This document shows, one piece after another, positions 15,709 to 59,845 of a stretch of DNA of 64,000 bases. The notes under the pieces are model-generated. The model searched no databases, had not been told where the DNA came from, and worked only from the letters and a program-made list of their open reading frames with translations. The translations under genes were made by a program, and so were the position numbers. Each line of letters starts with the position of its first letter. The first letter of the stretch is position 1. Source of the stretch: Dehalococcoidia bacterium (lineage in GTDB: Bacteria; Chloroflexota; Dehalococcoidia; Lucifugimonadales; UBA3495); NCBI GenBank assembly GCA_965204685.1, contig OZ242004.1, forward strand, positions 79,091 through 143,090, read 5' to 3'.

Positions 15709-16117
15709 CTGACACAGGCAGGTATTTTCGCATCATGTTAATGAACCTCATTTTTCACAATAGACCCGGGTGACAGTCGCCAGTACGCGCGATGGCCTGC
15801 CGGCATGCAGATCCGAACAAAACAGTTGCAAACGGCGACCGCTTCGAACTGTCCGGAGAAGTTCGACATTTGCCGGAGCGGCAGGCCACCGCGGCGGAGG
15901 AGTTTCGCACCGCGTCCACGTGTGTGGTCTCCCCGCAGTCGTCGCATCGGAATTCCAGGTAGTGGCTCCAACTACTGACCAGTTGCATGGTTTGCCGTTG
16001 CATCCTTCTTTTTCGTATTTAGAGCCTTTCCTAATGACCAGGCGGCGCTGCTGTTGCTTTTGCCGACGGTTCGGGTCGGTCGCCGACTGACAGTTCCGGC
16101 GCAAAAAGCCGGGAAAC

Positions 16118-16197
16118 CTTACACCATAATCCGTATTTTAGTCCGTATTTTTAGATCTTCTTTTATATGGGTTCTTGTATGCTTGCGCTTGATCAAC
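16118..16197. promoter_or_regulatory. conserved AT-rich control block, copy 1
   Basis: CTTACACCATAATCCGTATTTTAGTCCGTATTTTTAGATC..TATATGGGTTCTTGTATGCTTGCG. Homologous blocks at 24974, 36105 and 59669. Lies 435 bp upstream of the start at 15683 and 62 bp upstream of the stub ORF. Confidence 0.5.
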
Positions 16198-16258
16198 CAT
16201 GAAGTCGGGCCCGGACCCGCAATGCAGTCGTTGCTGGGGATCCGGGTCGGAGAAAGGC

Positions 16259-16360
16259 ATGGGCCAGCCCTGCCGGGAGATCGGGGTCCTGCGGGAATGC
16301 CTGCCCCGCCTGAGCCGGGCCAGCCGGCGCATCAACTCAATCGCCGCCAATCTGGACTGA
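16259..16360 (+). CDS. 33-codon kinase-stub ORF (homolog of the N-terminus of 36255..38690)
   Basis: MGQPCREIGVLRECLPRLSRASRRINSIAANLD versus kinase MDQPEQPYREIQALQERLSRLSEASRRINESLD. G/C-rich third positions. It may be a relic rather than a gene. Confidence 0.35.
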   Translation: MGQPCREIGVLRECLPRLSRASRRINSIAANLD

Positions 16361-16362
16361 GA

Positions 16363-16390
16363 CGGGTGTCCAATCGCAGCCAGACGCCCG
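16363..16390. terminator. kinase-type hairpin after stub 1
   Basis: CGGGTGTC..GACGCCCG (one G-U pair), related to the hairpins at 164 and 38725. Lies between the stub stop and the stop of 16434..24863. Confidence 0.45.
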
Positions 16391-16433: not shown

Positions 16434-19400
16434 CTACGAGGCCGGCGTCACCGTAACCTGGAAGGCGTCGCTGACCTGGTTGCCGTCGGGGTCCTCCGCC
16501 GTGACCGTGATGGTGGCCGTGCCCGTGCCGGTTCCCACCACCGTCAGGGTGGAGCCGTTCACATGCAGGGTGGCCGCCACGGCGTAGTTGGACGATGTGG
16601 CGCTGAAGGTCAGGTCGTCGCCGTCGGGGTCGTGGAACACGCCGGACAGGGAGATCTCCCGATGTCCCGGCAACTCCAGGCTGATGTCGGCCAGGGGCGA
16701 GACCACCGTGGGTGAGCCGTCAGAGGCTTCCCGCCCTGGGTCCTCTTCCTCCGGCTCCGCTTCCACCGATACGTCGAAGCTGTCGCTGACCCGGTTGCCA
16801 TCGCTGTCCTGGGCCGTAACGGTGATGGTGGACGTGCCCTCGGCGACACCCGCCAGCGTAATCTTGGATTGGTCCGCAACCACGGTTACGGTGGCCTTGG
16901 CGTCGTCTGACGAACTGGCCGTGATGGTCAGATTGTCGCCGTCGGCGTCGCGGAAGACGCCGGACAGGGAGACGTCCTGCGACGAACCCGCCTCCAGGCC
17001 GCTCACGTCGGCCAGGGGCTGGGCCACCACCGGCGCAGACTTCACCCTGACGGTGAACTCATCCGATACCGTTCCGCCCTCGTCGTCGTTCGCGGTGACC
17101 GTGATAGTCGCCGTACCACGGCTCTGGGCGCTCACCGTCAGGCCGGAGTAGTCGGCGGACACCGACACCGTGGCCACGGCGTCAGTGGACGAACCGGCGG
17201 TGATGGTCAGCGCGTCGTTGTCGGCGTCGTCGAACACCCCGGACAGGGAGACTTGGTGGGCGCCGCTCTGGTTGACGATGGTTACGTCGTCAATGGCAGA
17301 GGCCACCGTGGGCGCCCGGTTGGGCTGCTCCGGCTCCGGGACCACCGACACCTCGAATTCATCGCTGATCCGGTTGCCGTCGGCGTCCTCCGCGGTTACG
17401 GTGATAGTCCCCGACCCTTCCGAAACTCCTGCCACGGTCAGCGTGCCGTGGAACAGGAAGGCATCCACCACGGCGTCGTCCGACGACGCGGCGCTGAAGG
17501 TCAGGCTGTCGCCGTCGGCGTCGCGGAACACGCTGGACAGGGACACGTCCTTTCCGTCTCCCACCTCCAGGCCGGACACGTCGCCGATGGCCGCGGCCAC
17601 CACCGGGGCGGCCTTCACCTTCACGGTGAAAGCGTCCGATACCGTGCCGCCGTTGCCATCGTCGGCCGTTACGGTGATGGTCGCCGTACCCCGGGCCTGG
17701 GCGGATACCGTCAGGCCGGAGTAATCGGCGGCAACCGACACGGTTGCTTTGGTCTCATCCGAGGACGCGGCGGTGATGGTCAGGTCGTCGTTGTCGGCGT
17801 CGCTGAACACCCCGCTAATGGAGACCGTCCGCGTCCCGCTCTGGTTGACGATGGCGGCGTCGGCGATGGCGGCGGCCACCGTGGGAGATTGGTTGGGCGT
17901 TGCCTGCTGTTGCTGTGGCGCGGCCTCGATCTCCTTCAGGGCGGCGGCCACCTCCACCCAGCGGGACCAGCCCCTATCGGCGAAGTCCTGAGCCTCAGCC
18001 GCCGTCATCGGAGTGAGAGATGCGTCGGACACCGTCTCGCCGAGGGCCAGGAGCGCCCGGTCCCAGCGGTCGGTGTGGGCCTTGTAGCTGCTCCACTGGG
18101 GGTCGTTGCGCCACTGGTACATCTTTGCGATCAGCGCGGCGTACTGCTTCGCCACCGACACGTCGAAGGCGTCGCTGACCCGGTTGCCGTCGGCGTCCTG
18201 GGCCGTGACCGTGATGGTCGCCGCGCCCTCGGCGACCCGCGCCACCGTCAGCTTGGAGCCGTCGGACGCCACGGATACCGTGGCGATGGTTTCATCCGAG
18301 GATGCGGCGGTAATGGTCAGGGCGTCGCCGTCGGCGTCGCGGAACGCGCCGGACAGGGACACCTCCTGCGTTGCTCCCACCTCCAGGCCGCTCACGTCGC
18401 TGATGGCCGCGGCCACCACCGGCGCGGCCTTCACCGTCACCGTGAACGTGTCCTCAACCGTCCCGCCGTTGCCGTCGTCCGCCGTCACCGTGATGGTCGC
18501 CGTGCCCCGGGCCTGGGCCGTAACCGTCAGCGTGGAGTGGTCCGACGCCACCGACATCGTGGCTTTCGTCTCATCGGACGATGTGGCGGTGACAGTCAGG
18601 CTGTCCCCGTCCCCGTCGCTGAAGGTGCCGGACAGGGAGACCCGCTTGGTCCCGCTCTCGTTGACGATGATTGCGTCTCCCAAGGCGGCAGACACCGTGG
18701 GCGCCTGGTTGGGCGTTCCCTGCTGTTGCTGCGGGTCCGGCTCCGCCGCCGCCTCGATCTCCTTCAGCGCGGCCGCCACGTCGACCCAGCGGGTGCCCCA
18801 GGCCGTGTCGGCGTAGCCCTGGGCCTCAGATGCCGTCATCGCCGTCAGCGTCGTGTCGGAAACGGTCTCCCCGAAGGCCAGCAAGGCCCGGTCCCAGCGG
18901 TCGGTGTGCGCCTGGTAGCTCACCCACTGCGGGTCGTTCCGCCACTGGTACATCCGCGCGATCAGTTCCGAGTAATCCCCGGAGGTATCCGGCCCCGGCT
19001 CCTGCGCCTGGGGCGCTTCCTCCGACACCGTCGCCGCAAAGTCAACCAGCGCCGTGCCCCCCTTGCCGTCGTTGGCCGTCACCGTTACCCTCGCCACGCC
19101 CGGGATCAGCCCGGTCAGGGTCAGGGTGGATTGGTCCGACGACACCGCCGCCGTGACCACCTGGATGTACGAGGAACCGTCGTGGCCCGGCGGCGGCTCC
19201 GCCGTGATGGTCAGCGTGTGGGCCGTGACGGTCAGGCTGTCGCCGTCGGCGTCGTCGAACAGCCCGCTCAGCGACACGTCCTTGATCCCGCCCCGGGCCG
19301 CCACGGTGACGTCGTCCAGGGAGCCGGTCGCCGTGGGCGCCTGGTTGGGCGCCGCCGGCGCGGCATCGACCACCTGCGGCAGGTTCAGGGGTACGGCCGT

Positions 19401-22400
19401 GAAGGGCGCGCGCTGGGCTGCCGGGCTGAGACCGCCGTGCTGCAGCACGGGATACTGGCTGGCCGTGCCGAAGTCCCAGGGGTCGTCGCCGCTGCCGTCC
19501 AGGTCCAGGTCCGCGTTCCAGTCGGCGTAGATGCCGGCGTAGCCCGTGGGCCCTTGCAGCCCCGCAGTGGTCTGCCCCACGCCGGCCGGGCTGCTGCTCA
19601 AGCCGGAGGTTTGGGTATCCCAGTAGGCGGCGTCCACCGCGCCGGAGACGTGCGCGCCGGTCAGGCCGCCGGCCGCGCCGCCTTCGGCCGTGGCCGACCC
19701 GGTCGCGTAGCTGGCGGTTACGCTGCCATTGTTGTCGCCCACCAGTCCGCCGGCCCGCTGGCCGGCGCTGGACACCGGCCCGGTGGCGTAGCTGGTCTTG
19801 ATGGAACCGCCGGCTGCGTTGCGGCCCACCAACCCGCCGGTGTTGTCGGCCCAGCCCGAAACCGCGCCCCGGGCGTAGCTGGCCTGGATGAGGCCCTGGT
19901 TGGCGCCCGCCAGGCCCCCCACGCCCTGACCTCCGACCTTTCTCCCGGCCACGTTGGCCCGGGACGAACTGCCCGTGATGAAACTCCCTGACCTGGCCTC
20001 CCCCACCAGGCCGCCCACGTTGCTGATCCCGGACACCGCCCCGGTCACGTGGACGTTGCTGATGATGCCGTGGCTGTACCCGGCCAGGGCGCCGATATAC
20101 CCCTTGCCCGACACGTTGACGTTCTCCAGCCGCAGGTTGCGCACGATGCCGTTGTAGGCAATGATATAGAAGAGGCCCTTATCGTCGTGCTTGCCGTCCC
20201 CCGCATCGGTGGGCAGTCCGTAGATGTTGACCCGGTTCAGCACTTCGTCGGTGAAGGGCGTGTCCAGCGTGTTGATGTACAGGTTCCGTATGGCGTGCCC
20301 GTTGCCCTCGAAGATGCCGCGCCAGTAGTTCCCTCCCTCTATGTCCTGCGCTATGGGTCGCCATCCCTCGCCGTCGTTGCCAAAGTAGTCGTCGCACGCG
20401 CCGGGACCCTGCGCTCCTCCCGGGTGCCCCCCGTACCAACTCCGGCACCTGGCGGAGCCGTCGGGATTATGCGACCCGTTCCAGTAGTGGTCGCCGGGGT
20501 CGGCCCGGCCGTTGCCGTTGGTGTCGAAGTCCAGGTCGGCCATCAGCTCGTAACCCATGCAGCCATCCCCGGGACAGCCCATCCCACGTCTGGCGTTGGG
20601 GTATGCCGATTGGTAAGCGTTCCGGGCACTGTTGGGATAGGGGTTGTGGTCCCAACCATAGGCGCCCCTGCCGTCCTCGTCATAGCGGATGGCATAGAGC
20701 TGGTCCAGGCTGTGCACCTCGATGAGGCCGTCGTCGTCACGATCGTAGTCGATGCCCTGGGCCGGCTGCTGGTTGGAGGGCCTCGTGACCGGCTCGGTGG
20801 ACTCCGGAGGGTCGGGCATCGCCGCCCGCTGGGCCGCCACGCTGGGGCCGGTGTCCCGCAGCACCGGGAAGTCCAGCGACGTGCCGAAGTCCCAGACGTG
20901 GGAGTCGCCGCTGCGGTCCCTGAGATCGTCCCAGAGAGCGTAGATGCCCGTGTAGCCCGTGGGCCGCCGCAGCTCGGCGGTGGTGAGACGCCTGCCGGCT
21001 TGACCGGCGGCTCGGCTGTTCAACCAGTAGCTGGCGGTGATATTGCTTCTGTCGGCGTGTCCCGGCCTTACGTTCGGGAGCGTGCAGCCGATACACCGAT
21101 GGCCATTTTTGGTGCTTACGGACCTGTGATTACCAGCCAGCCCCCCCACGTAACCGTCGCCGGACACCGCTCCCAGGGCGTAGCTGGCCGAGATGGGCGC
21201 ACCGTTATCGCCGACCAATCCCCCGATATATCTTCGGCCGGACACGTCGCCGGTGGCGTAACTGGCGAAGATCTCGCCTGCGTTATCGCCCACCAGGCCG
21301 CCCATGAAATTCGCATTGCCCGATACCCGGCCCGTGGCGTAACTGGCCACGATGCTGGCCCGGATGGGGGCGCTGTCCCAGCCGATGCGGCGAGTGGTGC
21401 TGTAGCCAACCAGGCCGCCGTAATAATCGGTCCCGGATGCGACTGCGGTTACGTCAGCCGTGGAGTAGCTGCGCACGATGCGACCGCCATAGTTCGACCC
21501 GACCAGTCCTCCCACAAAACTGTTCGTGCTCCAGACCTCGCCAGAGGAATGACTGTCTGTGATTGCACCGCGGTTCTGCCCCACCAGCAAGCCGGTCACC
21601 CGCCCGTCGGATACCGACCCGGTCACGCTGGCGTTGCTGATCGCGCCGCGGTTCTTCCCCACCAGAGCGCTCACGTATATTCCTTTGCCGCTACCGCGAA
21701 CTTGCGCGTTCTCCAGCGCCACGTTGCGGATGACGCCGGTCTCTCCAAGCTCCCGAAACAACGCCTGATACCGGTCATCTCTACTGATGTACAGGTAGCT
21801 GATGGCGTGGCCGTTGCCGTCAAAGACAGCGGCGTATTCGCCGATGGGCAGCCAGCCCTGGCCGTCGTTCACGTGCCCGCCGTCAACCGCTCTTGGATAG
21901 TCGCCGGCGTCGGCCCGGCCGTTGCCGTTGCGGTCAAAGTCCAGGTTGGCGGCCAGCTCGTAGCCCTTGCAACCGCTCTGGGGACAGCCCGCCCCGTTGG
22001 CAGTGATGCCGGGGAAGGCCCCTTCGTACTTGTCGTTGGCATCCGCAATGGCGGAACCGCTGGCGGAGCCGTCGCCGTCAAGGTCAAAGCGGATGGCGTC
22101 CAGCTGCGCCAGGCTGCACACCTCGATGAGACCGTCGTCGTCATCGTCGTAGTCGTCGCCGGCCTCCGGCTGGCAGCCGCCCGCGAAGGAGTCCGCCCCC
22201 GTCACCACCGTAACCGCCTGCGACCAGTCGCTTACGCCGCCGTCGTTGCCGGAACGCACGCTCACCGTGTAGGTCGCGCCGCTCTCCAGGCTCTCGAACG
22301 TCGCCGTCCGCGCGTCGGCGCCCAGCCGCTGCTCGGTGGCGTCGCCGTCGGCGTTTTCCAGCCGGGCCACGTAGTAGTCGGGCAGATCGCCGCTGCCCGG

Positions 22401-24863
22401 CCCCCGCCAGGTGACGGTGATGCTGTCCGCCTGCACCGTCAGCCGGAGATCTCCCGACGGGTTGGGCCGAGTGGGGAAGGTCCGGTTCACCGTTACCGCG
22501 TAGGTCTGCGTGGCCACGCCGTCGGGGGCCGTCACCACCACGTTGACCGGGTTCGACGCGTTGTAGTCCAGCGCCACCGGCGACGCCGGGTCTCCGCCGT
22601 TCACGGCAACGGCGGCATTGGGGTGAAACGGCACGGCCGTGAAAACAACGCTCTCCGTGGTGTACGGCACGTCCACCGTGTAGGCGGTGTTGTCCGGGTC
22701 GAAGTCGAGCGTTCCCTCCGAGACGGTCAGGTCGTGCAGGGTGGCGTCGTTGTCGGCGGGCAGACCACGGGTCACCGTCAGCGTGTAGACCTGCTTGTAG
22801 GTGTTTTCCGCGAAACCAGACTTTACAGAGCGGCTCTTCCACTTGTAGATGCCGACCTGCGCCGTCGTGGCCGCTCCCTGTTCCAAGGTGATGGTCTGGG
22901 GCCTTGGATTGTCATTCCTGTGCAGAATGCTGACCAAATCCCGAGGCCAATCCTCGGGCTCTCTGTTATCCCAGTCAATTTCGGCCTGGGCTAGGTCTTC
23001 GGAAACCAGGACGTACGCAGTGTTGCCGCTCCCGTATCGATAGGGGGTGGTGAACCGACCGATAACGACCAACTCGGTCAAGTCCCCCGGCGCCACCAGC
23101 CGGTAGCTGTAGTGGTTGCGACGGAACTCCGGATGGACGGTGATGCCCTCGGGCGTCGCCAGCCCCGTCAGGGCCAGGTCCCGGTTGCCCGGCGCCGCCA
23201 GGTCCACCACCGCAGTGAACCGGACGTTCTCGCTCCGGGGACGGGTCACCGTCACCACGTAGGTCTCCGTGGCCACCCCGTCCACCGCCGTGACCGCCAC
23301 GCTGATGACGTTCGCGCCGTAGTCCAGCGACACCGGCCCGGCCGGGTCGCCGCCGTTCACCGTGACGGCGGCGTGGGGATGGTTGGCGGCCGGCGTGAGG
23401 GTCACCCGGCCCACCGTGGCCGCCACGTCCACCGCGTAGGCGGTGGTGCCGGGAGCGAAGTCCAGCGAACCCGCCGAGATGGCCAGGGCCTTCAGCGTGG
23501 CGTCGTCCGCCGCCTGCGTCGGCTGCGGTGTCGGCGCCGGCGTGGGCGTGGGCGTGGGAGCCGGCTCCAGCCGAGGCGCCGGCTGCGGCCCAAGCGCCGT
23601 GCCCGGGCTGGATGCGTCCCGGATCTCGCCGTGCAGGGTGGCGCTGACGACAGATGGTGACAGCGTGTAGTTGCCCGCCTTGAACGCCCCATGGTCCTGC
23701 AACGAGTAGGTCACGCTCAGGTCATGGGAACCCGCCTCCGCCGACGGGAACTGCCCGCTCACCACCAGCCCCCCGGCCCGCAGGTCCGCCAACTCCCCCG
23801 CCAGCGCCCCGATCACCCGGACCCGGCCCGTGTCGAAGGTGGCGTCCGTGGTCCCGTCGGCCACCCGCGAGTTCACCCGCACCCCGCTGATGGTCGTTAT
23901 CTCCAGGGGCGTGATGGCTCCGCTCACGCTGAAGGTCACGTCGTAGTTGCCCGCGTCCGCTCCGCCGACAGATACTCCGGTGACGGCGATGCCCGTACCG
24001 GCGTCCGCCGCGGCGTAGCTTCCGCCGCTGACCGTCACCACGTCCCCGTTCACGATGTCCCCGGCGGCAAAGCTTCCACTCAAAGCTCCCACGAGCGTCG
24101 CCGTGCCGTCGTAGGCCCTGGCGGGCGCCGTGCCGGTCCAGGTCACCGCCCTGGGCGTGATGGTGTAGGCTGTCGCCGCCGTGAAATCGGCCGGCAGGGC
24201 GTACTTGGTGGCGTAGGCCGGCGCGATGGCCAGGGTGCCCAGGTTGATGGCGTAGCTGCCCGCGTCGTCTCCCGGCGCCCGGCCCAGGCTGCCCGACACC
24301 ACGTTGCTGGCCGCATCGCCGTCCACCAGCCCGCTCACCGTGTGGCTCAGGGCGTCGGTCCCGCCGTACTTCCGCGTGGTGTTCCCCGCCTTGATCGCCA
24401 AAACCCGCGCTCCCCCGATGTAGCAGGTCAGCGTCGCCTGGGCGCTGCTCACCCGGCCTCCCTCGGCGGTTTCGTAGTTCGCCTTGACGCTGAGGCTGAC
24501 CGGCTTCCCCGACGGGTAGCTGCCCCGCCGCAACAGCGTCTGGCCCTTGACGTTGCCCTGCTCCCGCCGGCCGTCCGGCAGTGACAGCTCGTAGTCGTAG
24601 GAAACCGCCTCCTCTCCTGCCCACTCGGGAACGTCCCACATGAACCACACTGCATCCGTTCTGGTAGTGCATTGCAGGTTCGACGGCGGCGGCGGTTCGG
24701 CGCCCTGGGCCTGGACGGGCCCCGATGACAGCAGCGCCAGCGCCGCCACACCGGCAGTCAATGCCACCGTCAGCAGCGCCAGCGCGCACAGCGCCCGGCG
24801 GCCTCGGGACGTGAGGGCAGCGTGAAGCGGGTGAAGGGGACTGGACGGGGGCGTGAATTTCAT
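16434..24863 (-). CDS. giant (2809 aa) modular surface protein, A-type (A1)
   Basis: GGAGGT lies 7 nt upstream of the ATG. Domain order, N to C:
- signal-anchor MKFTPPSSPLHPLHAAL..ALLTVALTAGVAALALL
- FN3-like domain
- MBG/YDG repeats (TPRAVTWTG..AYDGTA..AGNYDV)
- PT linker
- cadherin-like beta-sandwich units (DATLKALAISAGSLDF..TYVVTVTR)
- FN3
- two supermodules of DYD.DDDGLIEV..DLDGDG..GCP..GC.GYEL..DLDFD.NGNGRAD.GD followed by GLUG arrays (GGLVG.N.G.I)
- 8 Ig/cadherin-like repeats (VSLSGVF.DADGD.LT..A.SSD..ATV....LTV....GTATITVTA.D..G..VSD.F.V.V), interrupted twice by a Trp-rich module. Confidence 0.92.
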   Translation of the reverse strand: MKFTPPSSPLHPLHAALTSRGRRALCALALLTVALTAGVAALALLSSGPVQAQGAEPPPPSNLQCTTRTDAVWFMWDVPEWAGEEAVSYDYELSLPDGRREQGNVKGQTLLRRGSYPSGKPVSLSVKANYETAEGGRVSSAQATLTCYIGGARVLAIKAGNTTRKYGGTDALSHTVSGLVDGDAASNVVSGSLGRAPGDDAGSYAINLGTLAIAPAYATKYALPADFTAATAYTITPRAVTWTGTAPARAYDGTATLVGALSGSFAAGDIVNGDVVTVSGGSYAAADAGTGIAVTGVSVGGADAGNYDVTFSVSGAITPLEITTISGVRVNSRVADGTTDATFDTGRVRVIGALAGELADLRAGGLVVSGQFPSAEAGSHDLSVTYSLQDHGAFKAGNYTLSPSVVSATLHGEIRDASSPGTALGPQPAPRLEPAPTPTPTPAPTPQPTQAADDATLKALAISAGSLDFAPGTTAYAVDVAATVGRVTLTPAANHPHAAVTVNGGDPAGPVSLDYGANVISVAVTAVDGVATETYVVTVTRPRSENVRFTAVVDLAAPGNRDLALTGLATPEGITVHPEFRRNHYSYRLVAPGDLTELVVIGRFTTPYRYGSGNTAYVLVSEDLAQAEIDWDNREPEDWPRDLVSILHRNDNPRPQTITLEQGAATTAQVGIYKWKSRSVKSGFAENTYKQVYTLTVTRGLPADNDATLHDLTVSEGTLDFDPDNTAYTVDVPYTTESVVFTAVPFHPNAAVAVNGGDPASPVALDYNASNPVNVVVTAPDGVATQTYAVTVNRTFPTRPNPSGDLRLTVQADSITVTWRGPGSGDLPDYYVARLENADGDATEQRLGADARTATFESLESGATYTVSVRSGNDGGVSDWSQAVTVVTGADSFAGGCQPEAGDDYDDDDDGLIEVCSLAQLDAIRFDLDGDGSASGSAIADANDKYEGAFPGITANGAGCPQSGCKGYELAANLDFDRNGNGRADAGDYPRAVDGGHVNDGQGWLPIGEYAAVFDGNGHAISYLYISRDDRYQALFRELGETGVIRNVALENAQVRGSGKGIYVSALVGKNRGAISNASVTGSVSDGRVTGLLVGQNRGAITDSHSSGEVWSTNSFVGGLVGSNYGGRIVRSYSTADVTAVASGTDYYGGLVGYSTTRRIGWDSAPIRASIVASYATGRVSGNANFMGGLVGDNAGEIFASYATGDVSGRRYIGGLVGDNGAPISASYALGAVSGDGYVGGLAGNHRSVSTKNGHRCIGCTLPNVRPGHADRSNITASYWLNSRAAGQAGRRLTTAELRRPTGYTGIYALWDDLRDRSGDSHVWDFGTSLDFPVLRDTGPSVAAQRAAMPDPPESTEPVTRPSNQQPAQGIDYDRDDDGLIEVHSLDQLYAIRYDEDGRGAYGWDHNPYPNSARNAYQSAYPNARRGMGCPGDGCMGYELMADLDFDTNGNGRADPGDHYWNGSHNPDGSARCRSWYGGHPGGAQGPGACDDYFGNDGEGWRPIAQDIEGGNYWRGIFEGNGHAIRNLYINTLDTPFTDEVLNRVNIYGLPTDAGDGKHDDKGLFYIIAYNGIVRNLRLENVNVSGKGYIGALAGYSHGIISNVHVTGAVSGISNVGGLVGEARSGSFITGSSSRANVAGRKVGGQGVGGLAGANQGLIQASYARGAVSGWADNTGGLVGRNAAGGSIKTSYATGPVSSAGQRAGGLVGDNNGSVTASYATGSATAEGGAAGGLTGAHVSGAVDAAYWDTQTSGLSSSPAGVGQTTAGLQGPTGYAGIYADWNADLDLDGSGDDPWDFGTASQYPVLQHGGLSPAAQRAPFTAVPLNLPQVVDAAPAAPNQAPTATGSLDDVTVAARGGIKDVSLSGLFDDADGDSLTVTAHTLTITAEPPPGHDGSSYIQVVTAAVSSDQSTLTLTGLIPGVARVTVTANDGKGGTALVDFAATVSEEAPQAQEPGPDTSGDYSELIARMYQWRNDPQWVSYQAHTDRWDRALLAFGETVSDTTLTAMTASEAQGYADTAWGTRWVDVAAALKEIEAAAEPDPQQQQGTPNQAPTVSAALGDAIIVNESGTKRVSLSGTFSDGDGDSLTVTATSSDETKATMSVASDHSTLTVTAQARGTATITVTADDGNGGTVEDTFTVTVKAAPVVAAAISDVSGLEVGATQEVSLSGAFRDADGDALTITAASSDETIATVSVASDGSKLTVARVAEGAATITVTAQDADGNRVSDAFDVSVAKQYAALIAKMYQWRNDPQWSSYKAHTDRWDRALLALGETVSDASLTPMTAAEAQDFADRGWSRWVEVAAALKEIEAAPQQQQATPNQSPTVAAAIADAAIVNQSGTRTVSISGVFSDADNDDLTITAASSDETKATVSVAADYSGLTVSAQARGTATITVTADDGNGGTVSDAFTVKVKAAPVVAAAIGDVSGLEVGDGKDVSLSSVFRDADGDSLTFSAASSDDAVVDAFLFHGTLTVAGVSEGSGTITVTAEDADGNRISDEFEVSVVPEPEQPNRAPTVASAIDDVTIVNQSGAHQVSLSGVFDDADNDALTITAGSSTDAVATVSVSADYSGLTVSAQSRGTATITVTANDDEGGTVSDEFTVRVKSAPVVAQPLADVSGLEAGSSQDVSLSGVFRDADGDNLTITASSSDDAKATVTVVADQSKITLAGVAEGTSTITVTAQDSDGNRVSDSFDVSVEAEPEEEDPGREASDGSPTVVSPLADISLELPGHREISLSGVFHDPDGDDLTFSATSSNYAVAATLHVNGSTLTVVGTGTGTATITVTAEDPDGNQVSDAFQVTVTPAS

Positions 24864-24907: not shown

Positions 24908-24973
24908 CTTCCTGATTGGATCGGGTCTTCCCGGCGCGGTGGCTGCTTTTCCCGGCGCGGAAAGCGGCGCCAA

Positions 24974-25056
24974 CTTACACCAGAAACGGTATTTCAGTCC
25001 GTATTTTTAGACCATCTTTTGTATGGGTTAATGTATGCTTGCGGTTGGTCAGCTAT
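24974..25056. promoter_or_regulatory. conserved AT-rich control block, copy 2
   Basis: CTTACACCAGAAACGGTATTTCAGTCCGTATTTTTAGACC..TTTGTATGGGTTAATGTATGCTTGCG. Lies 111 bp upstream of the A1 start and 36 bp upstream of stub 2. Confidence 0.5.
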
Positions 25057-25091
25057 GCAGTCGTTGCTGGTGGTCCGGTCCGGAGAAAGGC

Positions 25092-25193
25092 ATGGACCAG
25101 CCCTGCCGGGAGATCGGGGTCCTGCGGGAATGCCTGTGCCGCCTGAGCCAGGACAGTCGTCGCATCAACTCACTCGTCGGCAAGCTGAACTGA
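25092..25193 (+). CDS. 33-codon kinase-stub ORF, copy 2
   Basis: MDQPCREIGVLRECLCRLSQDSRRINSLVGKLN. Same length and same stop position as stub 1. GAGAAAGG lies just upstream. Confidence 0.35.
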   Translation: MDQPCREIGVLRECLCRLSQDSRRINSLVGKLN

Positions 25194-25195
25194 GA

Positions 25196-25223
25196 CGGGC
25201 GTCCAACCGCAGTCGGACGCCCG
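25196..25223. terminator. kinase-type hairpin after stub 2
   Basis: CGGGCGTCC-aaccgcagtc-GGACGCCCG. Lies between the stub 2 stop (25193) and the B1 stop (25252). Confidence 0.5.
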
Positions 25224-25251: not shown

Positions 25252-28200
25252 TTACCCGGACTGGGCCGCCTCGATTTCCTTCAGGGCGGCGGCCACCGGC
25301 ACCCAGCGGACCCAGGCGCTCCCCCGGTCCGCCAGTTCCTGCGCCTCCGCCGCCGTCATCGGCGTCAGCGACCCGTCGGAGACGCTCTCCCCAAAGGCCA
25401 ATAGCGCCCGGTCCCAGCGGTCGGTGTGGGCCTTGTAGCTCACCCACTGCGGGTCGTTGCGCCATTGGTACATCTGCGCGATGAGCGCCGCGTACTTCCT
25501 CGCCACCGGCGCGTCGAAGGTGTCGCTGACCCGATTGCCGTCGCTGTCCTGGGCCGTGACCGTAATCGTCGCCGTGCCCACGGACACTCCGGCAAGCGTC
25601 AGCCTGGAGAAGTCCGACGCAACGGACACCGTGGCAATGGCGTCGTTCGAGGACGCGGCGGTGATGGTCAGCGTGTCGCCGTCGGCGTCGCTGAACACAC
25701 CCGAAAGGGACACGTCCTGTGTAGATCCGACTTCCAGCCCGGACCGGTCGTCGATGGCCGACGCTACCACCGGCGCGGCTTTCACCGACACCATGAACGT
25801 GTCCGCGCCGGTGCCGCCGTTGCCGTCGTCGGCAGTGACCGTGATGCTCGCCGTCCCACGGGCCTGCGCACTCACCGTCAACGTGGAGTAGTTGGGCGCC
25901 ACGGAGACGGTAGCCACGGCCTCGTCGGAGGAGGCGGCGGTGATGGTCAGGCTGTCGCCGTCGGCGTCGGTGAACACGCTGGACAGGGAAACCTGCTTGG
26001 TCCCGCTCTCGTTGACGATGGTGGCCTCGCCGATGGCGTTGTATACCGTGGGCGGCCGCTCAGAAATGTCCTCGATCAGCGCGCGCTGGGTCGCCGGGGT
26101 GATGCTGTTAATTTTCAGCACCGGGTACTGGCTATCCGTGCCAAAGTCCCAAGGGTCGTCGGCGCTGCTGTCGCCGTCCAGGTCCACGTTCCAGTCGGCG
26201 TAGATGCCGGTGTAGCCGGTGGGTTGCCGCAACTGGTCCAGACTCACGGTTGCCCCGAATTCCGGGCCGGACCACTCGGTCTTCGTTCGGTATGAGTAAC
26301 CGGCAATGATCCGGCTGGCACCGCCCACGACCGATCCAACTAGGACCCCGTCCGGTCGGCCCACAGCGTAGGTGGCCTCGACGACATTGCTATTGTACCC
26401 AATCAAGGACCCCAACGCTCCGATGTTTCTGAGCGCCACCGGGCCGGAGCCAGTGACGCTGCCGGCGGCGTAGGCGGCTGTTACCGTCCCCGCGTTCCGC
26501 CCCACCAGACCGCCGATGTAATAGCCGTCTCCCTCGACGCTGCCGGTGGCGAAGCTGGCGGTGATGGTGCCCCTGTCGGTGTTGAACCCAACCAGGCCGC
26601 CAAAGTTCCTGCCCTCGCCGGTTACGACGCCGGTGGCGTAGCTCTCCCTGATGACGCCATCATTCTTTCCAACCAAGCCGCCGACATTGCTGTGAGGGCT
26701 ACGACCTCTGTAGGGTTGGGTTTCTTCAATCCCGGTGACGCTGGCCGTGGCATAGCTGCCTTGGATGGCGCCATAGTTGGTTCCCACCAGTCCGCCCAGG
26801 ACGGAGCCCCGGTTGGAGACCGCGCCGGTAACGTAGCTGTTGCGGATTTCACCGTGGTTCGTTCCGGCCAGTCCGCCCGCGTTTACACGCGCGCAGCCGT
26901 CCTGCGCCGGGCACCGGGACACGTTCACCGCTTCCAGACCGAGGTTGCGGATAACCCCGCCGGAGGCGACTCCCTCGAACATTCCTACGGAAGCCTGATC
27001 CATGGAATATGAGCCATTTATCCTGTAGTCGGTTGCGACGGACTGCTTCTCTATCGTCGAGTCGATGTAGAGGTTTCGGATGATGTGCCCGTTGCCTTCG
27101 AACACGGCGTTGTAGTCGTGGGTGTCGATGCCGATGGGCAGCCAGCCGTAGCCGGAGTTCCAGTAAGCGTCGCCGGCGTCAGCGCGGCCGTTCCCGTTGG
27201 TGTCGAAGTCCAGGTCCGTAGTCAATTCGTAACCGATGCAGCCCGTCTGAGGACAGCCCATGCGCTCCAGCGGGTTGAGGAAGCCCTCGTGGAGCGGGCC
27301 GCCATGGTCGCTGTATCCGTCGCCATCCACATCCCAGCGCATGGCGTCCAGCTGGGCCAGACCGGATATTTCGATGAGGCCGTCGTCGTCAGTGTCGTAG
27401 TCCACGGTCCGCGGCGGAGCGAGCGGCTCGACGGGAGCCTCCAGCGCCGTGGACGGTGATCGCCACACCAGTTGCAGAGTGTAGGTTTTCTTTGCCATTT
27501 TTGCGCTGTCCAAAAGCCATTCTGAGCCAGTTTCTGACCGAGCAGACCCCATTCCTTTGAACCATTGTGACCCGCCGATTTCAATGGTGGTCACGCCCGG
27601 GCTCAGATTAATGGACAAAGACCTGGGGGTGTAGCGATCCACGTTGTTCTGCATCGCGCCATCCAAAGGCATAGGACCAGGGTACACAACCGCCTGGCCA
27701 CGCACAAAAGCCCACGCAAAGCCGGCGCCGTATCTATAAGTAGTTAGCGGGTACCCGGCCTTGAAGCCCCCGGTGACCTGCAACTCCGTGACGCTGTCCG
27801 CCACATGCACCACGTAGTGGTGCCGGTCGGGTGTGAACCCCGGATAGAACGTGATGTCCGATGCCGTCGAAACGCTCTCGACCGTCAGGTGGTCTTCGCA
27901 CATGATGAACGCGATCACGCCAGCTTTGGGGGCGGGCCGGCGGTCGGGGTCCGGCTCGCAGGGAGGCATCAGAAGCTCTTTGCCCGTGCTGGCCGGCGTC
28001 GCAGCCGCGGCCGGCGTGCATGGCGCGCGCTGGTCGTCCGGATTCAGGCCGCCGTACTTCAGCACGGGATACTGGCACGACGTGCCGAAGTCCCAGGGGT
28101 CGTCGGCGTTGCCGTCGCCGTCCAGGTCCACGTTCCAGTCAGCGTAGATGCCGGCGTATCCGGTGGGCGACTGCAACTCGGAGGTGGTCTTACCTGCACC

Positions 28201-31200
28201 CACTCCGCTGGCGCCTTGGCCAGAGGCGCGGGTGTCCCAGTAACTGGCTGAGGCCCTGCCCTGGCTATGATTGAATCCGACCAGTCCGCCAACGTTTTTG
28301 CCGCCGCCCGACACCGGGCCGGCAGCATAACTAGCCGTAATGACGCCGAGGCCATCGTTATAACCGACCAGTCCGCCTATGTTTTCGCCCCCCCTCATGA
28401 CATCGTTTATGCGAACGCCATCTCCACCCGCGACGCGGCCTGTGGCATAACTGGCGATGATCTTGCCGACGTTGAATCCGACCAGTCCGCCTACGTCCCG
28501 CCCGTCGCCGGACACCTGCCCTGCGGCGTAGCTGGCGATGATCTTGCCTCCGGCTGCGTTGACCCCGACCAACCCGCCGACATCAAACCCCCCGCTGACT
28601 GAACCGGTCATGTACGCGCCGGCAATCACGCCCGAGTTCTGCCCCACCAGCGCGCCGACCTGCCGGTTATTTGTGAAATCGTCTGTGACGGACGCGGAAA
28701 CCAGCCCAACATCGCGCACCACGCCCGGATGAACGATAGTGTGGAACAGACCAACACGCGAGGCCACCACATCATTGATGTAGAGGTTGCTGATGGTGTG
28801 ACCGTTACCGTCGAATGTAGCCCGGAAGCCCGATCCATCGTCGTGCATGGGCGTCCAGCCGTTTCCGCCGTTCCAATAGGCATCGCCGGCGTCGGCTTTG
28901 CCGTTCCCGTTGGTGTCGAAGTCCAGGTCGGTGACCAGCTCGTAGCCAATGCAGCCGTTCTGGGGACAGCCCATGGCGCGGGCGGGATCGGGGAAGGCGG
29001 CCGCGTAGTGTTTCCGGTATTCAGCGCGGTTGGGGCTGCCGTCCCCGTTGACGTCCCAGCGGATGGCGTCCAACTGCGCCAGGTTGGAGATTTCGATCAG
29101 ACCGTCGTCGTCAGTGTCGTAGTCGACGCCCCCGGAGTCGCCGCCGACGGTTGGCGTGTCAGCCCGGCTGCGGTGCTTCAACATTGGATATTCGCTTGAC
29201 GTACCGAAGTTCCAAGGATCGTCAGCATTGCCGTCTCCGTCCAGGTCCACGTTCCAGTTGGCGTAGATGCCGGTGTAGCCGGTGGGTTGCTGCAGCGTCG
29301 CAGTGGGATGGCCGGCGCCCGCGTGGAACTGATGGGATCCGGGCGCTGGAACGGTCCCGAAGGGACTGCGATCTGGGAGATGGCCGGTAACATCGGTGTT
29401 CCAGTACGAGTCTGTCGTGGTGCTATCGTCGTAGCCGAGCAGGCCGCTGACGTAGTAGCGACCGCCGGACACAGTGCCAATGGCGTAACTCGCCGTGACC
29501 GGCGTGCGACTGAACCCAATCAGACCCCCAACGTAGTCGGCCCCGCTGGGAGAGGTGACGTTGCTGGATGAGTGACTGGCAATCACGTAGCCCGGAGAGT
29601 CGGAGGCGCCGACCAATCCACCGGCCCTCGAGTCGTAAGCGCCAACTGTGTTGACCACCCTTCCCGCCGAGCACCCGGTGATGACGGCTCCTACATTGTC
29701 AGCTACCAACCCGCCGACGGTGTTGTTGCCCGTTACGTTGCCGTTGAAGGAACTGGCTATGACGACGCTGGTTGACCTGGTCGATCCCACCAATCCACCG
29801 ACCAGATTCCGCCCGCTTACCGAACCGGTGGCGTAGCTGTCAGTGATTTTGCCGGCGTTGTGGGCCGACAGCGCGCCCACTGTGTAGCCTCCGGTCACGT
29901 TAACGGATTCCAGACTGAGATTGTGAACCTCCGCGCCCAGATCTACGTGACTGAACAACCCCAGAGAACCCCTGCCACTGTTGATGTAAAGATTGCTGAT
30001 GGTGTGGCCGTTGCCGTCGAAGATGCCGCTGAGCCTAGGCGGGTCCCAACCCTCGCCGCCGTTCCAATAGGCATCGCCGGCATCTGCCCTGCCGTTGTCA
30101 TTGGTGTCAAAGTCCAGATCGGCCATCAGTTCATAGCCTTTGCCCGGATCCGAATGCAGGTAGTTGTACAACTCAGCCAACGTGTTGATGTTAGTCAAGT
30201 TCGGGTCGTCAGTTGTGTCCTCGTAACCTACTGGAGCGCAACCCGGCTGGCCCGCCACCACCGTATTGAGCGATGTGGCGTCGTCGTTGTCGATGATGGC
30301 CAGTGTCAGCGGCACAGCCGTCAGGGAAGACGCGCTGGCCGCGGCGTTCAGGATGATGGTCTCGTCGTCATCGTCAACGGCGTCATCCACCACGGTGATA
30401 GTGGACACGCCGGCCGTGGCGCCGGCCGTGATGTTGACGGTGGCCGGCGCCAGGGTGTAGTCATCTCCCGCCGTGGCCGTGCCGCCGGTGGTCAACGCAA
30501 CGCTCACCCCGCCCGGCCCGGCCGGACTGGACAGCCCGGCGGTAACGGTAACTGCGGGGCCGCCCTCCGCCGGCGTTCCGTCGGCAGCCAGCATGAGCGC
30601 GGAGCCGCAGGCGGCCACTGCGGTGAGTTCGCCCTGGAGGGTGTCGGTACTTGCCAACAGGGTGTAGTTGGCCGCCTTGAAGCCGCCGTGATCCCGCAGC
30701 GAGTAGGTCACGCTCAGGGTGTGCCTTCCCGGCGTGGCCGCCGGGAAGGCTCCGCCCACCACCAGGCCGCCGGCCCGAAAGTCCGAAAGCTCCGAGGACA
30801 GCACGCCCACGCCCGTGGCGGCGGACGTGTCAAAGGTCGCCGCCACGCTCCCATCGGCGGGACGGCTGACCACCGTCACCCCGCCGATGGCTGTGATGGG
30901 TCTGGGCGTGATGGTGTAGGACGCCACCGCCGGACGCGACGGCAACGTGTACTTGTCCGCGTAGGCCGCAGCGACCGCCAGCGTCCCCATGTTGATGGCG
31001 TAGCTCCCCGCATCATTCCCCGCCGCCCGGGACAGCGCTCCCGCAACCACGTCTGCCGCCGCGTCGCCGTCCACCAGCCCGCTCACCGTGTAGCTGAGAT
31101 CGTCGGCGCCCCCGTACTCCCGGCTGGGACTGCTGGGCGTGATCGTCAGCGTGCGCGTCTGCGCCGCCGGCTGCCCCGGCGTTCCCTTCACCGCGACCCA

Positions 31201-33168: not shown

Positions 33169-33191
33169 GGCGTTGTATCCTTGCGGGTAGG

Positions 33192-35990: not shown

Positions 35991-36104
35991 GGTGTTGTTT
36001 CCTTGTGGGTAGATTCCGGCTGCTGGCGAACTTCGATCCATATCCGGACACTGACAGTCCCCAAGGGGAACCACGACCTCCAGCGGAGCGGAAAGCGGCG
36101 CAAA

Positions 36105-36185
36105 CTTACACCAGCAACGGTATTTCAGTCCGTATTTTTAGAGCCTCTTTTGTATGGGTTGGTGTATGCTTGCGCCTGATCAGCC
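36105..36185. promoter_or_regulatory. conserved AT-rich control block, copy 3 (between gene C and the fused kinase-regulator)
   Basis: CTTACACCAGCAACGGTATTTCAGTCCGTATTTTTAGAGCCTCTTTTGTATGGGTTGGTGTATGCTTGCG. GTAT-core boxes at 36120, 36132, 36152 and 36164. Confidence 0.55.
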
Positions 36186-36254
36186 ATACAGTCGGGCCCG
36201 GACCCCGAAGGCCGTTGCCACAACGCCGGCGGCAGTCCGGGCCGGGAGGAATAC

Positions 36255-38724: not shown

Positions 38725-38754
38725 GCGGGCGTCCGGACACGGCCGGACGCCCGC
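38725..38754. terminator. GC-rich hairpin after the fused kinase-regulator
   Basis: GCGGGCGTCCGG-acacgg-CCGGACGCCCGC, between convergent genes. Homolog of 164..193. Confidence 0.5.
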
Positions 38755-50373: not shown

Positions 50374-50758
50374 TCTTGGCCTCGGCAACAATTCAATTGC
50401 ATACTGAAATCGGCTTTACGTTGGCCGAGTGTTATCCTCTATCATACCAGACCGAGTATCGCACCAGACCCTGGCGAGTTGGCCGATTTCTCCGTAATCG
50501 TTCACGCTTCGTGAGTCGGTCTGGCCCTAAACCGGCATTCCCGGCCTTGGCTGGAACCTGGAGAATCCGCTAGCTATTGTATTTTTGCCGGTACCAAGGA
50601 CTGCTGGATTTCCGTTCTCGGGCTTATCCGGTGGGCCTAAAGAGGTTGCACTGTAAAGAACCTTCTGCCCTGCCGACCAAGTTTAGCGCAACCGAACATT
50701 GGCGTCCAACCGCAGCCGGACCCCAGCGCGAAAAAGGCCCTGCCTCGAGATCCCTAAC

Positions 50759-59557: not shown

Positions 59558-59571
59558 TGGGGACCTCCGCA

Positions 59572-59602
59572 GTGCGTTATGAAATCGAGTGGCGTTATGA
59601 AA
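59572..59602 (-). promoter_or_regulatory. direct repeats in the A2 leader (counterpart of 24878..24907)
   Basis: GTGCGTTATGAAA at 59572-59584 and GTGGCGTTATGAAA at 59589-59602 (one inserted G). Confidence 0.4.
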
Positions 59603-59668
59603 CTTCCTGACTGGACCGGGTCTTCCCGGCGCGGTGGCTGCTTTTTCCGGCGCGGAAAGCGGCGCCAA

Positions 59669-59748: not shown

Positions 59749-59749
59749 T

Positions 59750-59817: not shown

Positions 59818-59845
59818 CGGGCGTCCAACCGCAATCGGACGCCCG
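59818..59845. terminator. kinase-type hairpin after stub 3
   Basis: CGGGCGTCC-aaccgcaatc-GGACGCCCG, between the stub stop and the B2 stop (59874). Confidence 0.5.

Follow-up and report, generated by a model that had tools for sequence, protein, structure and literature searches.

Three short segments between the giant surface-protein genes of this Dehalococcoidia genome, here called stubs, are very probably non-functional 5' remnants of a paralogous fused sensor-kinase/response-regulator gene, lying passively between elements that belong to their neighbours. They are best read as ordinary genome debris and not as a working peptide. This reading draws on homology to the kinase N-terminus, a junction shared by all copies, neutral divergence, the decay of the third copy, stubs of variable extent in related genomes and a link between the adjoining hairpins and the giant genes. 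From the same arrangement, a mode of origin for the stubs and a role for a nearby direct repeat can be proposed. All positions refer to the window, the 64,000-nucleotide stretch of DNA that was analysed.

Homology and divergence of the stub reading frames

The stubs, the kinase to which they are related and the giant genes around them are located as follows.

16259..16360, + strand: stub1, a 33-codon ORF with translation MGQPCREIGVLRECLPRLSRASRRINSIAANLD; junction and stop position as in stub2
25092..25193, + strand: stub2, a 33-codon ORF with translation MDQPCREIGVLRECLCRLSQDSRRINSLVGKLN; probable 5' remnant of a fused HK-RR gene, with Shine-Dalgarno (SD) sequence and ATG intact
59750..59815, + strand: stub3, a degraded copy in which only the last ~14 codons are recognisable
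36255..38690, + strand: full-length parent-type kinase, GAF-PAS-HisKA-HATPase_c-Response_reg-Trans_reg_C, 811 aa
7611..15683, - strand: giant gene A, 2690 aa, with Calx-beta, LapA and fn3 domains; downstream of control block 1; no similarity to giant genes B-E
16434..24863, - strand: giant gene B, 2809 aa, with Big_2, Cadherin-like, fn3, GLUG and MBG domains; convergent on stub1, divergent from stub2
25252..33273, - strand: giant gene C2, 2673 aa; convergent on stub2
51188..59668, - strand: giant gene D, a paralogue of B (87.7% nucleotide identity over 8.7 kb); intact ORF

The preliminary description of this DNA had aligned the 33-codon frames at both sites with the kinase N-terminus, and this was borne out. 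With a profile HMM of 67 kinase N-termini and a 1.6-Mb six-frame database, stub1 was recovered at E=3e-8 and stub2 at E=6e-7, while tblastn within the window matched the stubs to the kinase N-terminus at E ~1e-5. The homology spans kinase residues 6-29 (..SRRIN) and possibly extends to residue 33 (..LD) past a 9-nt insertion. This insertion, the stop codon and the abutment of a hairpin are common to all three copies. Stub1 and stub2 agree in length and stop position, as had been described, and the distance from stop codon to stem is 2-3 nt, in keeping with a hairpin placed within 3 nt of the stubs. In both, the Shine-Dalgarno sequence GGAG lies 6 nt upstream of the ATG, and the frame is also open 5' of the ATG (52 aa from 25035 in stub2, 53 aa from 16199 in stub1). 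The third copy, earlier reported to be about 60 bp short, is missing ~66 nt that comprise the Shine-Dalgarno sequence, the ATG and ~19 codons; its tail, hairpin and 3'UTR are identical at 87 of 91 positions. Stub3 has decayed while the adjacent giant gene D remains an intact ORF.

The stubs correspond to kinase residues ~6-33 only, a segment preceding the GAF core; residues 5-31 of the kinase are modelled by AlphaFold2 as one long helix in front of that core. A domain check found none of the GAF, PAS, HisKA, HATPase, REC or wHTH domains in the stubs, which are fragments, not members, of the GAF-PAS histidine kinase/OmpR-type response regulator family.

Stub1 and stub2 differ by 12 nucleotide changes (Nei-Gojobori sd=2, nd=10), a recount that agrees with the 2 synonymous and 9 non-synonymous codon changes previously tallied by hand. 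The dN/dS is 1.8, and the differences fall 3/6/3 over the codon positions, without third-position excess. Neutrality fits these changes (P=0.37), whereas an omega of 0.3 (P=0.01) and an omega of 0.1 (P=1e-5) are rejected. Purifying selection on the amino-acid sequence of the stubs is not seen, in a test which, with 33 codons and two intact copies, has little power against weak constraint. Over the same codons, full kinases do show a third-position excess (3/3/8), and dN/dS is 0.25-0.38 for the window kinase against those of L001 and L002, and 0.85 for L001 against L002.

The individual replacements point the same way. R17, invariant in 61 kinases, is Cys in stub1 and stub2. The nearly invariant S19 is Pro in stub1 and Cys in stub2, and has therefore changed independently in the two. 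A24, also invariant in kinases, is Asp in stub2. Two residues lie inside the modelled kinase helix, Gly9 (stub1 and stub2) and Pro16 (stub1 only). On the other side, the hydrophobic heptad positions of that helix (I, L, L, L, I) are kept. At the nucleotide level, the first 24 homologous codons are identical between copies 1 and 2 at 66 of 72 positions, making them the best-conserved segment of the cassette (control block, 81-82%); the difference gives a Fisher P of 0.04-0.07 for segments picked post hoc, and may stem from a degree of constraint on the nucleotides or from nothing more than recent gene conversion. The stubs combine parent homology, missing domains, relaxed selection and independent decay with variable extent, as pseudogene remnants do.

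Control blocks and hairpins that flank the stubs

To the left of each stub lies a copy of a control block, and a further copy precedes the intact kinase.

16096..16207: control block copy 1; precedes giant gene A, a gene with no relation to giants B-E
24952..25063: control block copy 2; left half with the direct repeat and the invariant CTTACACC, right half with the kinase-side leader/promoter region
36084..36194: control block copy 3; flanked by giant gene C1 and the full-length kinase
59647..59758: control block copy 4, beside stub3; left half identical to copy 2 at 60/60 positions, right half at 36/52

The sequence GTATTTcAGTCCGTATTTTTAG is present in 4/4 control blocks of the window and comprises two similar half-sites ~11 bp apart, next to a presumed promoter. 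In copy 2, the direct repeat with its 11-bp spacing occupies 24989-25010 (GTATTTCAGTCCGTATTTTTAG). Analogous 11-bp repeats are visible in L001, L002, L006 and L083, and the control-block pattern GTATTTNAGTCCGTATTTTTAG had 0 matches in GTDB species genomes and JGI metagenomes. The kinase and stub2 likewise had no exact match on record in public assemblies, and no conspecific genome turned up in these look-ups. The OmpR/PhoB-type DNA-binding domain of the kinase itself could plausibly bind at the direct repeat. Beside real kinases, the right half of the block shows conservation between species, and in copies 1 and 2 it is 81-83% identical. In copy 4, the two halves depart from the 87.7% background, each with P=4e-4.

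To the right of each stub lies a hairpin, and related hairpins are found elsewhere in the window.

16363..16390: hairpin after stub1, with one mismatch per arm (16364-16389); distance to the giant gene B stop codon, 44 nt
25196..25223: hairpin after stub2, stem GGGCGTCC/GGACGCCC, loop AACCGCAGTC; distance to the stop codon of giant gene C2 (convergent), 29 nt
59818..59845: hairpin after stub3; distance to the giant gene E stop codon, 29 nt
38725..38754: predicted terminator hairpin of the full-length kinase, same stem, loop GGACACGGCC; ~35 nt past the kinase stop codon
164..193: predicted terminator hairpin of a second kinase, loop GACCGTGGTC; the window holds only the 3' end of that kinase
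50699..50727: degenerate fifth stub-type hairpin, TGGCGTCCAACCGCAGCCGGACCCCA; downstream of giant gene D and a META gene

Neither a control block nor a stub could be recognised to the left of the hairpin at 50699. The exact motif GGGCGTCC-N(2-20)-GGACGCCC occurs four times in the window (166, 25197, 38727 and 59819) and not once in 100 shuffles. The stub hairpins had been called clearly related to those at the kinase ends. This holds for the stem, which is identical, but not for the loop, which is of a different class; the stem alone is common to the two. The stub loop, AACCGCAGYC (AACCGCAG(Y)C), belongs to the same class as the loops of hairpins in giant-gene 3'UTRs, a type that sits 45-60 nt past giant-gene stop codons. 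This loop type also occurs in L001, in hairpins past giant-gene stop codons where no stub is present. Strand preference also differs: the giant-gene strand gives the stub hairpins an extra 1.4-3.7 kcal/mol of stability, while for the kinase hairpins it is the kinase strand that folds better, by 3-7 kcal/mol. For the stub2 hairpin, the energies are -29.7 kcal/mol on the + strand and -31.3 on the - strand. In short windows, the stub hairpins reach -14 to -22 kcal/mol on the + strand and, for stub2, -27.5 on the - strand (z of -3.4 to -4.7); in 61-nt windows the values are -20 to -31 kcal/mol. By loop class, the stub hairpins belong with the 3' ends of the giant genes.

Of the features of an intrinsic terminator, the stub hairpins have the stable GC-rich stem-loop. 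A U-rich tract past the stem is absent, with GCUUGGAUC following on the + strand and GUCUCAGUUCAGC on the - strand; such tracts are often missing in high-GC bacteria. A consensus promoter/terminator scan, uninformative in this high-GC sequence, listed none of these hairpins. They are putative terminators.

Relatives, origin and competing explanations

Five related metagenome genomes share the layout of giant gene, control block and stub, usually followed by a hairpin and the next giant gene.

L082: stub homologous to 10 kinase codons
L006: stub homologous to 13 kinase codons
L083: stub homologous to 14 kinase codons
L084: stub homologous to at least 45 kinase codons, with an in-frame TAG and frameshifts
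L037: two stub copies, of 90-126 kinase codons

Additionally, L083 carries a control block fused to a kinase that lacks residues 1-402, L001, L018 and L047 have orphan control blocks that lack stubs, and the kinase loci L085 and L086 have control blocks and no stubs. In the window and in L083, a full or partial kinase is found at one array end only. The preliminary description had kept a functional peptide in play and had named frame disruption in close relatives as the observation that would tell against it; the stubs of relatives do vary in length, and one of them has a stop codon and frameshifts. A pure relic, then considered at least as likely, has since become the stronger reading given the neutral divergence, the loss of invariant residues, the destruction of copy 3 and the variable relatives.

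As a relic, a stub would consist of the leader, the ribosome-binding site and the first ~29-33 codons of a kinase paralogue, held in place by two flanking elements that are retained for the sake of the neighbouring genes. On its left would be the control block, which carries the direct repeat and the sequences that regulate the divergent giant surface-protein gene; on its right would be a 3'UTR hairpin belonging to the next giant gene, which converges on the stub. All four identical predicted binding sites can be served by the single intact kinase (36255-38690), so that extra kinase copies would be dispensable and the peptide-coding capacity of the stubs would be free to drift. The junction between kinase codon ~33 and the hairpin was probably made once, because all three copies share it. 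In the slightly favoured scheme, a segment comprising hairpin, giant gene, control block and kinase start would have been duplicated in tandem, with the right breakpoint inside the kinase; the other scheme would be an internal deletion of the kinase body. In either case the ~330-bp cassette of control block, stub and hairpin would then have spread by giant-gene duplication or gene conversion.

The deletion scheme, under which the stubs are still relics, supposes that every array unit once had its own full kinase, that one of these lost ~2.4 kb from codon ~34 to its own terminator, and that the resulting allele was copied by gene conversion via flanking homology, with no breakpoint inside the kinase. 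In favour of this scheme, the stub hairpins and both kinase terminators have an identical stem, and CTGGACT (kinase codons 32-34) resembles CTGACT near the kinase stop codon, a possible microhomology. Further, the giant gene that cassette 1 precedes is A, a gene without relation to B-E, and a simple tandem duplication leaves this unexplained; there are also other deletion derivatives, such as the L083 kinase without residues 1-402. However, the loop class of the stub hairpins is that of giant-gene 3'UTRs and not of kinase terminators, no remnant of kinase C-terminal coding sequence or 3'UTR was found between stub and hairpin, and the presence of a full or partial kinase at one array end only is what tandem duplication predicts. 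On balance, the deletion scheme is possible but somewhat doubtful. These loci had previously been pictured as kinase genes collapsed to promoter, first codons and terminator. The kinase derivation stands; the terminator does not appear to be the kinase's own, as its loop is of the giant-gene type, which makes collapse onto the kinase's own terminator only one of two possible origins.

Explanations that give the stubs a function fare worse. The peptides of stub1 and stub2 might mimic the N-terminal amphipathic helix of the kinase, bind it as a decoy or dominant-negative and so tune the giant-gene promoters. The intact Shine-Dalgarno sequence and ATG, the identical length of the two stubs, the modelling of the parent segment as one long helix with its heptad-like hydrophobic spacing kept, and, between copies 1 and 2, a stub core with slightly higher conservation than the control block would all suit such a micropeptide. 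Against it, kinase-like constraint is rejected by the substitutions (dN/dS 1.8, no third-position excess), conserved kinase residues are replaced, helix breakers have entered both stubs, copy 3 is destroyed, and the stubs of relatives range from 10 to 126 codons, one of them with a stop codon and frameshifts. The stop codon is also so close to the hairpin (2-3 nt) that a terminating ribosome would cover its 5' arm, while in real kinase genes the distance is ~35 nt. Finally, a word-indexed protein search with a 47-aa query, the stub extended upstream in frame, returned no homologue, and an exhaustive search of 1.84 billion protein representatives with a two-stub profile found no stub-like family of short proteins, its matches being only one low-complexity protein and three frameshifted or truncated kinases. 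A micropeptide is accordingly regarded as highly improbable.

It is also unlikely, if less so, that the right half of the cassette works without coding, either because promptly terminated divergent transcription is needed for the activity or insulation of the giant-gene promoter, or as a ~150-nt regulatory RNA in which the ORF is incidental. The conservation of the control-block right half beside real kinases across species (81-83% in copies 1 and 2), the 66/72 nucleotide identity of the stub core and the stable hairpin directly after the stub are consistent with such a role. However, the right half has been lost from copy 4 (36/52 identity and a 66-nt deletion), whose left half is intact, as is giant gene D, relatives have orphan control blocks with almost no stub, and the hairpin lacks a U-tract on both strands and fits the opposite strand better. 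Rfam, at the gathering threshold, gave no match in the whole 64-kb window, which also holds no tRNAs, and whole stub RNAs are no more structured than shuffles. The stub as a structured small RNA was dropped, its folding being no more stable than that of shuffles (z ~ -0.65). That stub1 and stub2 are expressed at all, as a 33-aa helix mimic or as a leader RNA of ~150 nt that stops at the hairpin, and feed back on the remaining kinase or giant-gene promoters, is given only a very slight chance.

Significance and comparison with known systems

The stubs should be annotated as a pseudogene remnant and not as a small protein, and in itself this finding matters little. Their shared junction, in turn, marks the copying of a ~330-bp cassette between giant adhesin-like genes, so that one kinase seems to have enlarged its regulon through copies of its own control region; the differing stub lengths in other genomes show that such copying happens repeatedly. 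Of more interest is the context, a very large multi-copy family of fused sensor-regulators paired with giant genes of cadherin, fn3 and Ig domains. Several phyla are represented among the metagenome-assembled genomes with this pairing, and many of these genomes are apparently those of sponge symbionts. If the stubs were expressed after all, they would represent duplication debris that has come to modulate a two-component regulon, here in a Chloroflexota genome of the sponge-symbiont type.

Among known systems, the stubs most directly recall the pseudogene fragments left at duplication or deletion boundaries, with an intact parent nearby, a small 5' part, neutral substitutions, independent decay and a truncation that varies between genomes. 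Unlike ordinary fragments of this kind, the stub has been recopied within a ~330-bp cassette, together with the control block and the giant-gene terminator, and the same layout therefore recurs in several genomes. Small proteins that modulate histidine kinases, for example Sda and KipI (target KinA) and MgrB and SafA (target PhoQ), are under purifying selection and are not pieces of the kinase itself. The stubs resemble them in being short ORFs near a two-component system whose peptide could in principle contact the kinase, and differ in that they are neutral, one copy is destroyed and no homologous peptide family was found in the protein searches. The hairpins are comparable to bidirectional terminators, being GC-rich palindromes between a rightward stub or kinase and a leftward giant gene and stable on both strands, although those of the window lack a U-tract on either side, the stub stop codon lies within 3 nt of the stem and the terminator role is predicted. 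The control block is closest to the pho box of PhoB/OmpR promoters. While its repeat differs in sequence from known pho-type boxes and varies between paralogous kinases, and the site and promoter positions are predicted here, two CCGTAT-like repeats stand 11 bp apart beside a kinase that carries a Trans_reg_C winged-helix domain, as in promoters of the pho type.

Kinase-derived frames among large surface-protein genes

Three short reading frames (stubs 1–3) resembling the start of the fused histidine kinase/response regulator satisfy every gene-remnant test applied and fail the tests for a conserved micropeptide. They lie among large surface-protein genes (giants A–E) and four copies of a control block (CB1–CB4).

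Features of the window
7611–15683 (−), giant A: Calx-beta, LapA, fn3
16096, 24952, 36084 and 59647 (starts), CB1–CB4, ~110 bp, upstream of giants A, B, C1 and D
16133–16154, 24989–25010, 36120–36141 and 59684–59705, CCGTAT-like direct repeat
16259–16360 (+), stub 1: 33-codon ORF, GGAG 6 nt upstream of ATG
16434–24863 (−), giant B: Big_2, Cadherin-like, fn3, GLUG, MBG; paralogue of D
25092–25193 (+), stub 2: 33-codon ORF, GGAG 6 nt upstream of ATG
25252–33273 (−), giant C2
33192–36074 (−), giant C1
36255–38690 (+), kinase, 811 aa: GAF-PAS-HisKA-HATPase_c-Response_reg-Trans_reg_C
50699–50727, degenerate stub-type hairpin after the giant D–META gene pair
51188–59668 (−), giant D: Big_2, Cadherin-like, fn3, GLUG, MBG; paralogue of B; intact ORF
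59750–59815 (+), stub 3: last ~14 codons only; SD, ATG and ~19 codons deleted
59874 to window end (−), giant E

From left to right, the first array runs from leftward giant A through CB1, rightward stub 1 and its hairpin to leftward giant B, CB2, rightward stub 2 and its hairpin, and then to leftward C2–C1, CB3 and the full rightward kinase. The second comprises leftward giant D, CB4, rightward stub 3 with its hairpin, and leftward giant E. No similarity between giant A and giants B–E was detected, so that the unit common to copies 1 and 2 is a ~330-bp cassette of control block, stub and hairpin.

Stubs 1 and 2 match kinase residues 6–29 (QPYREIQALQERLSRLSEASRRIN; tblastn E ~1e-5 within the window), and a profile built from 67 kinase N-termini of related loci and searched against a 1.6-Mb six-frame database recovered them at E=3e-8 and 6e-7, respectively. 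The preliminary description was thus right to align the ORFs at 16259 and 25092 with the kinase N-terminus, as it was in calling the third copy shortened. All three stubs share a 9-nt insertion after ..ATCAAC, the TGA and the abutment on the hairpin; the stub/hairpin junction was therefore made once.

Several other features of the window were recorded. The C1 and C2 ORFs overlap by 82 nt, and a copy of the C1 translation-start region (42 nt, 88% identical) lies at 33156–33197; the C1/C2 split need not, therefore, represent a frameshift, and C2 may stand as its own gene within an operon. Between CB1 and giant A, an 82-aa Cys-rich ORF (15755–16003, −; CDDCGETTH...CRSGKC), zinc-ribbon-like by eye, is a candidate for the first gene under CB1 control. 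An 81%-identical duplication (7–706 and 38568–39298) covers both kinase 3' ends and ~600 bp downstream, each duplicate holding a convergent ORF of ~150 aa with an fn3 domain and coding-type GC3 (334–798 and 38914–39369, both −). A META-domain small gene recurs after giant D (50759–51172, −) and after the kinase in two loci from related genomes (L002, 12484–12894; L083, 8186–8566). The window also encodes a SWIM zinc-finger protein (5183–7081, +), a 594-aa protein with 12–13 RCC1-type repeats of 111-nt DNA period (40876–42660, +), an IrrE/M78-peptidase-domain protein (45089–46582, +) and a DDE transposase fragment (47388–47873, −).

The hairpin and the origin of the junction

As first described, a hairpin follows the stubs within 3 nt. 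The stop codon lies 2–3 nt before the stem, compared with ~35 nt in real kinase genes, a spacing not usually found in a maintained ORF–terminator pair. The window contains four exact matches to GGGCGTCC-N(2-20)-GGACGCCC (166, 25197, 38727 and 59819), against none in 100 shuffles; the hairpin of stub 1 is this element too, with a single mismatch per arm. All copies fold stably, with loops of two classes: AACCGCAG(T/C)C beside the stubs (AATCGCAGCC at stub 1), and GACCGTGGTC and GGACACGGCC at the kinase terminators. The proposed kinship of stub and kinase hairpins holds for the stem, which is identical, and not for the loop. Stub-type loops occur in the related locus L001 at 1306–1331 and 6171–6196, ~55 nt past giant-gene stops and with no stub beyond, and the ~30–45 nt between hairpin and giant stop are homologous between the window and L001. 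Stub hairpins are more stable on the giant-gene strand by 1.4–3.7 kcal/mol, because the stub strand has A–C mismatches where the giant-gene strand has G–U pairs; kinase hairpins favour the kinase strand, by 3–7 kcal/mol. No U-tract is present at the stub hairpins. Loop class and strand stability place the hairpin with the giant genes and not, as had been supposed, with the kinase as its own terminator. We conclude that it is a 3'UTR element of the giant genes and probably their terminator. Near-identical 81-aa ORFs, HTH-like by eye, lie beyond the hairpin after the tandem giants of L001 (1035–1280 and 5900–6145, −), in the position that stub and control block hold in the window.

Two routes to the junction were weighed. 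Tandem duplication of a unit running from hairpin through giant and control block to kinase start, whose right-hand break falls near codon 33 of the kinase, is slightly favoured by the hairpin loop class, by a search for a kinase 3' remnant that found none, and by the intact or partial kinase at one array end only, in both the window and L083. The other route, in which the kinase lost its body to an internal deletion, perhaps at CTGGACT/CTGACT microhomology, and units then underwent conversion with one another, draws on the identical stems of stub and kinase hairpins and on the location of cassette 1 upstream of the unrelated giant A. The earlier picture of a kinase collapsed onto its own terminator survives as this second route, slightly behind duplication given the loop class and the lack of a 3' remnant. 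The functional verdict on the stub is the same under either.

Selection on the stub and constraint along the cassette

Across the two intact copies of 33 codons on which the comparison rests, stubs 1 and 2 show 2 synonymous and 10 non-synonymous differences (dN/dS 1.8; 3/6/3 by codon position); an earlier tally of 2 synonymous against 9 non-synonymous codons was correct on recount. Such a split fits neutral divergence (P=0.37) and would be improbable at an omega of 0.3 (P=0.01) or 0.1 (P=1e-5). At the same codons, intact kinases show a third-position excess (3/3/8), with dN/dS of 0.25–0.38 for the window kinase versus L001 and L002, and 0.85 for L001 versus L002. In a 61-kinase alignment L14, R17, L18, S22, A24, R27, I28 and N29 are invariant and S19 nearly so; both stubs have Cys for R17 and either Pro or Cys for S19, and stub 2 has Asp for A24. 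AlphaFold2 modelled kinase residues 5–31 as a single long helix ahead of the GAF core (pLDDT 59–72 there, 80.7 overall), a segment in which stub 1 carries a proline and both stubs a glycine. No stub-like peptide family was found: a word-indexed protein search returned no homologue, and an exhaustive search of 1.84 billion representatives gave frameshifted or truncated kinases only.

Cassette 2 versus cassette 4, judged against the giant B/D background (87.7% identity over 8.7 kb)
Control block, left half: 60/60 identical, P=4e-4
Control block, right half: 36/52 identical, P=4e-4 in the opposite direction (below background)
SD, ATG and ~19 codons: deleted in cassette 4
Stub tail, hairpin and 3'UTR: 87/91 identical

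With giant D still intact, these identities indicate that the giant-side control block and the hairpin were kept, and that the kinase side and the stub were not. A complex indel, or patchy conversion templated by an unseen copy, could account for the right half of CB4 (59707–59758 versus 25012–25063) having outpaced the duplicated DNA around it in divergence. One comparison runs counter to the pattern of a kept giant side and a lost stub: in cassettes 1 and 2, identity is 66/72 over the first 24 homologous codons (16265–16336 versus 25098–25169) and 81–82% over the control blocks, a difference with Fisher P=0.04–0.07 for segments picked post hoc. The better conservation of these codons may be due to recent gene conversion or to weak nucleotide-level constraint.

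Relatives and a proposed working

The relatives are MAGs, partly from error-prone long-read assemblies. Their stub frames are disrupted, of other lengths or absent, the outcome named at the outset as counting against a functional peptide. In L083 a control block is followed by MDQSEQRDREFAAL (14 homologous codons), unrelated sequence, a canonical terminator, the GGGCGTCC hairpin and a convergent giant 3' end. The same locus joins a control block to a kinase lacking residues 1–402 (GAF, PAS, HisKA) and left with HATPase-REC-wHTH (8603–9940, −), a deletion derivative of the converse type. L082 has a control block, 10-codon stub, hairpin and giant gene; the stub of L084, homologous to about residue 45, is interrupted by frameshifts and, at codon 15, by an in-frame TAG; and the 13-codon stub of L006 abuts a convergent 1446-aa gene. 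An Acidobacteria MAG (L037) carries two extra copies of control block plus 90–126 codons, 93–97% identical to its own kinase 5' region. Orphan control blocks without stubs are also present, and control blocks further precede non-giant genes, for example an MMPL transporter (L084) and an LRR protein (L086).

The kinase has >7,900 homologues, several in many genomes (for example, three on one 2.06-Mb contig), and is divergent from large Big_2/cadherin genes in L001 and L002 and from the LRR gene in L086. Its best matches among species-representative genomes are MAGs labelled Dehalococcoidia, Caldilineaceae, Latescibacterota, Acidimicrobiia, Gemmatimonadota, Ca. Spongiisociaceae and Ca. Marinacidobacterales. 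Many of the isolate names are ones used in sponge-microbiome studies, and many kinase-bearing MAGs appear to be sponge symbionts. Full-length identity of 50–70% in several phyla, Acidobacteria included, together with partial matches of 33–46% in non-sponge Chloroflexota, suggests lateral spread of the family within this habitat. Robbins et al. 2021 (PMC8163846) describe cadherin and fn3 genes as over-represented in sponge MAGs and as having undergone lateral transfer. In relatives, kinase loci are flanked by a CD-NTase with Cap15 (CBASS-like; L002, 13224–14722), BrxC/BrxD-like genes and an SNF2 helicase (L085, 6277–11680) and a Cas12f1/TnpB-like gene (L083, 6401–7858), defence and mobile genes consistent with a variable genomic island.

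Direct repeats spaced by 11 bp are typical of OmpR/PhoB-type winged-helix regulators, and the kinase C-terminus is a winged-helix (Trans_reg_C) domain. The repeat GTATTTcAGTCCGTATTTTTAG, so spaced, is identical in all four control blocks. Analogous 11-bp repeats of other sequence precede paralogous kinases (L001, ~9905–9930; L002, ~9855–9880; L006, ~3960–3985; L083, ~16645–16620), which would fit private winged-helix binding sites. In the working that we propose, the single intact kinase would regulate itself and giants A, B, C and D via the repeat boxes. Additional kinase bodies, since lost, would have been dispensable, and the stub would be what remains between two elements retained for neighbouring genes. 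If rightward transcription persists at all, its product would extend ~150 nt into the hairpin. Co-option of stubs 1 and 2 as a peptide or leader-RNA modulator is considered highly improbable. The likeness of the stub to Sda, MgrB and similar small kinase modulators is one of size and location only.
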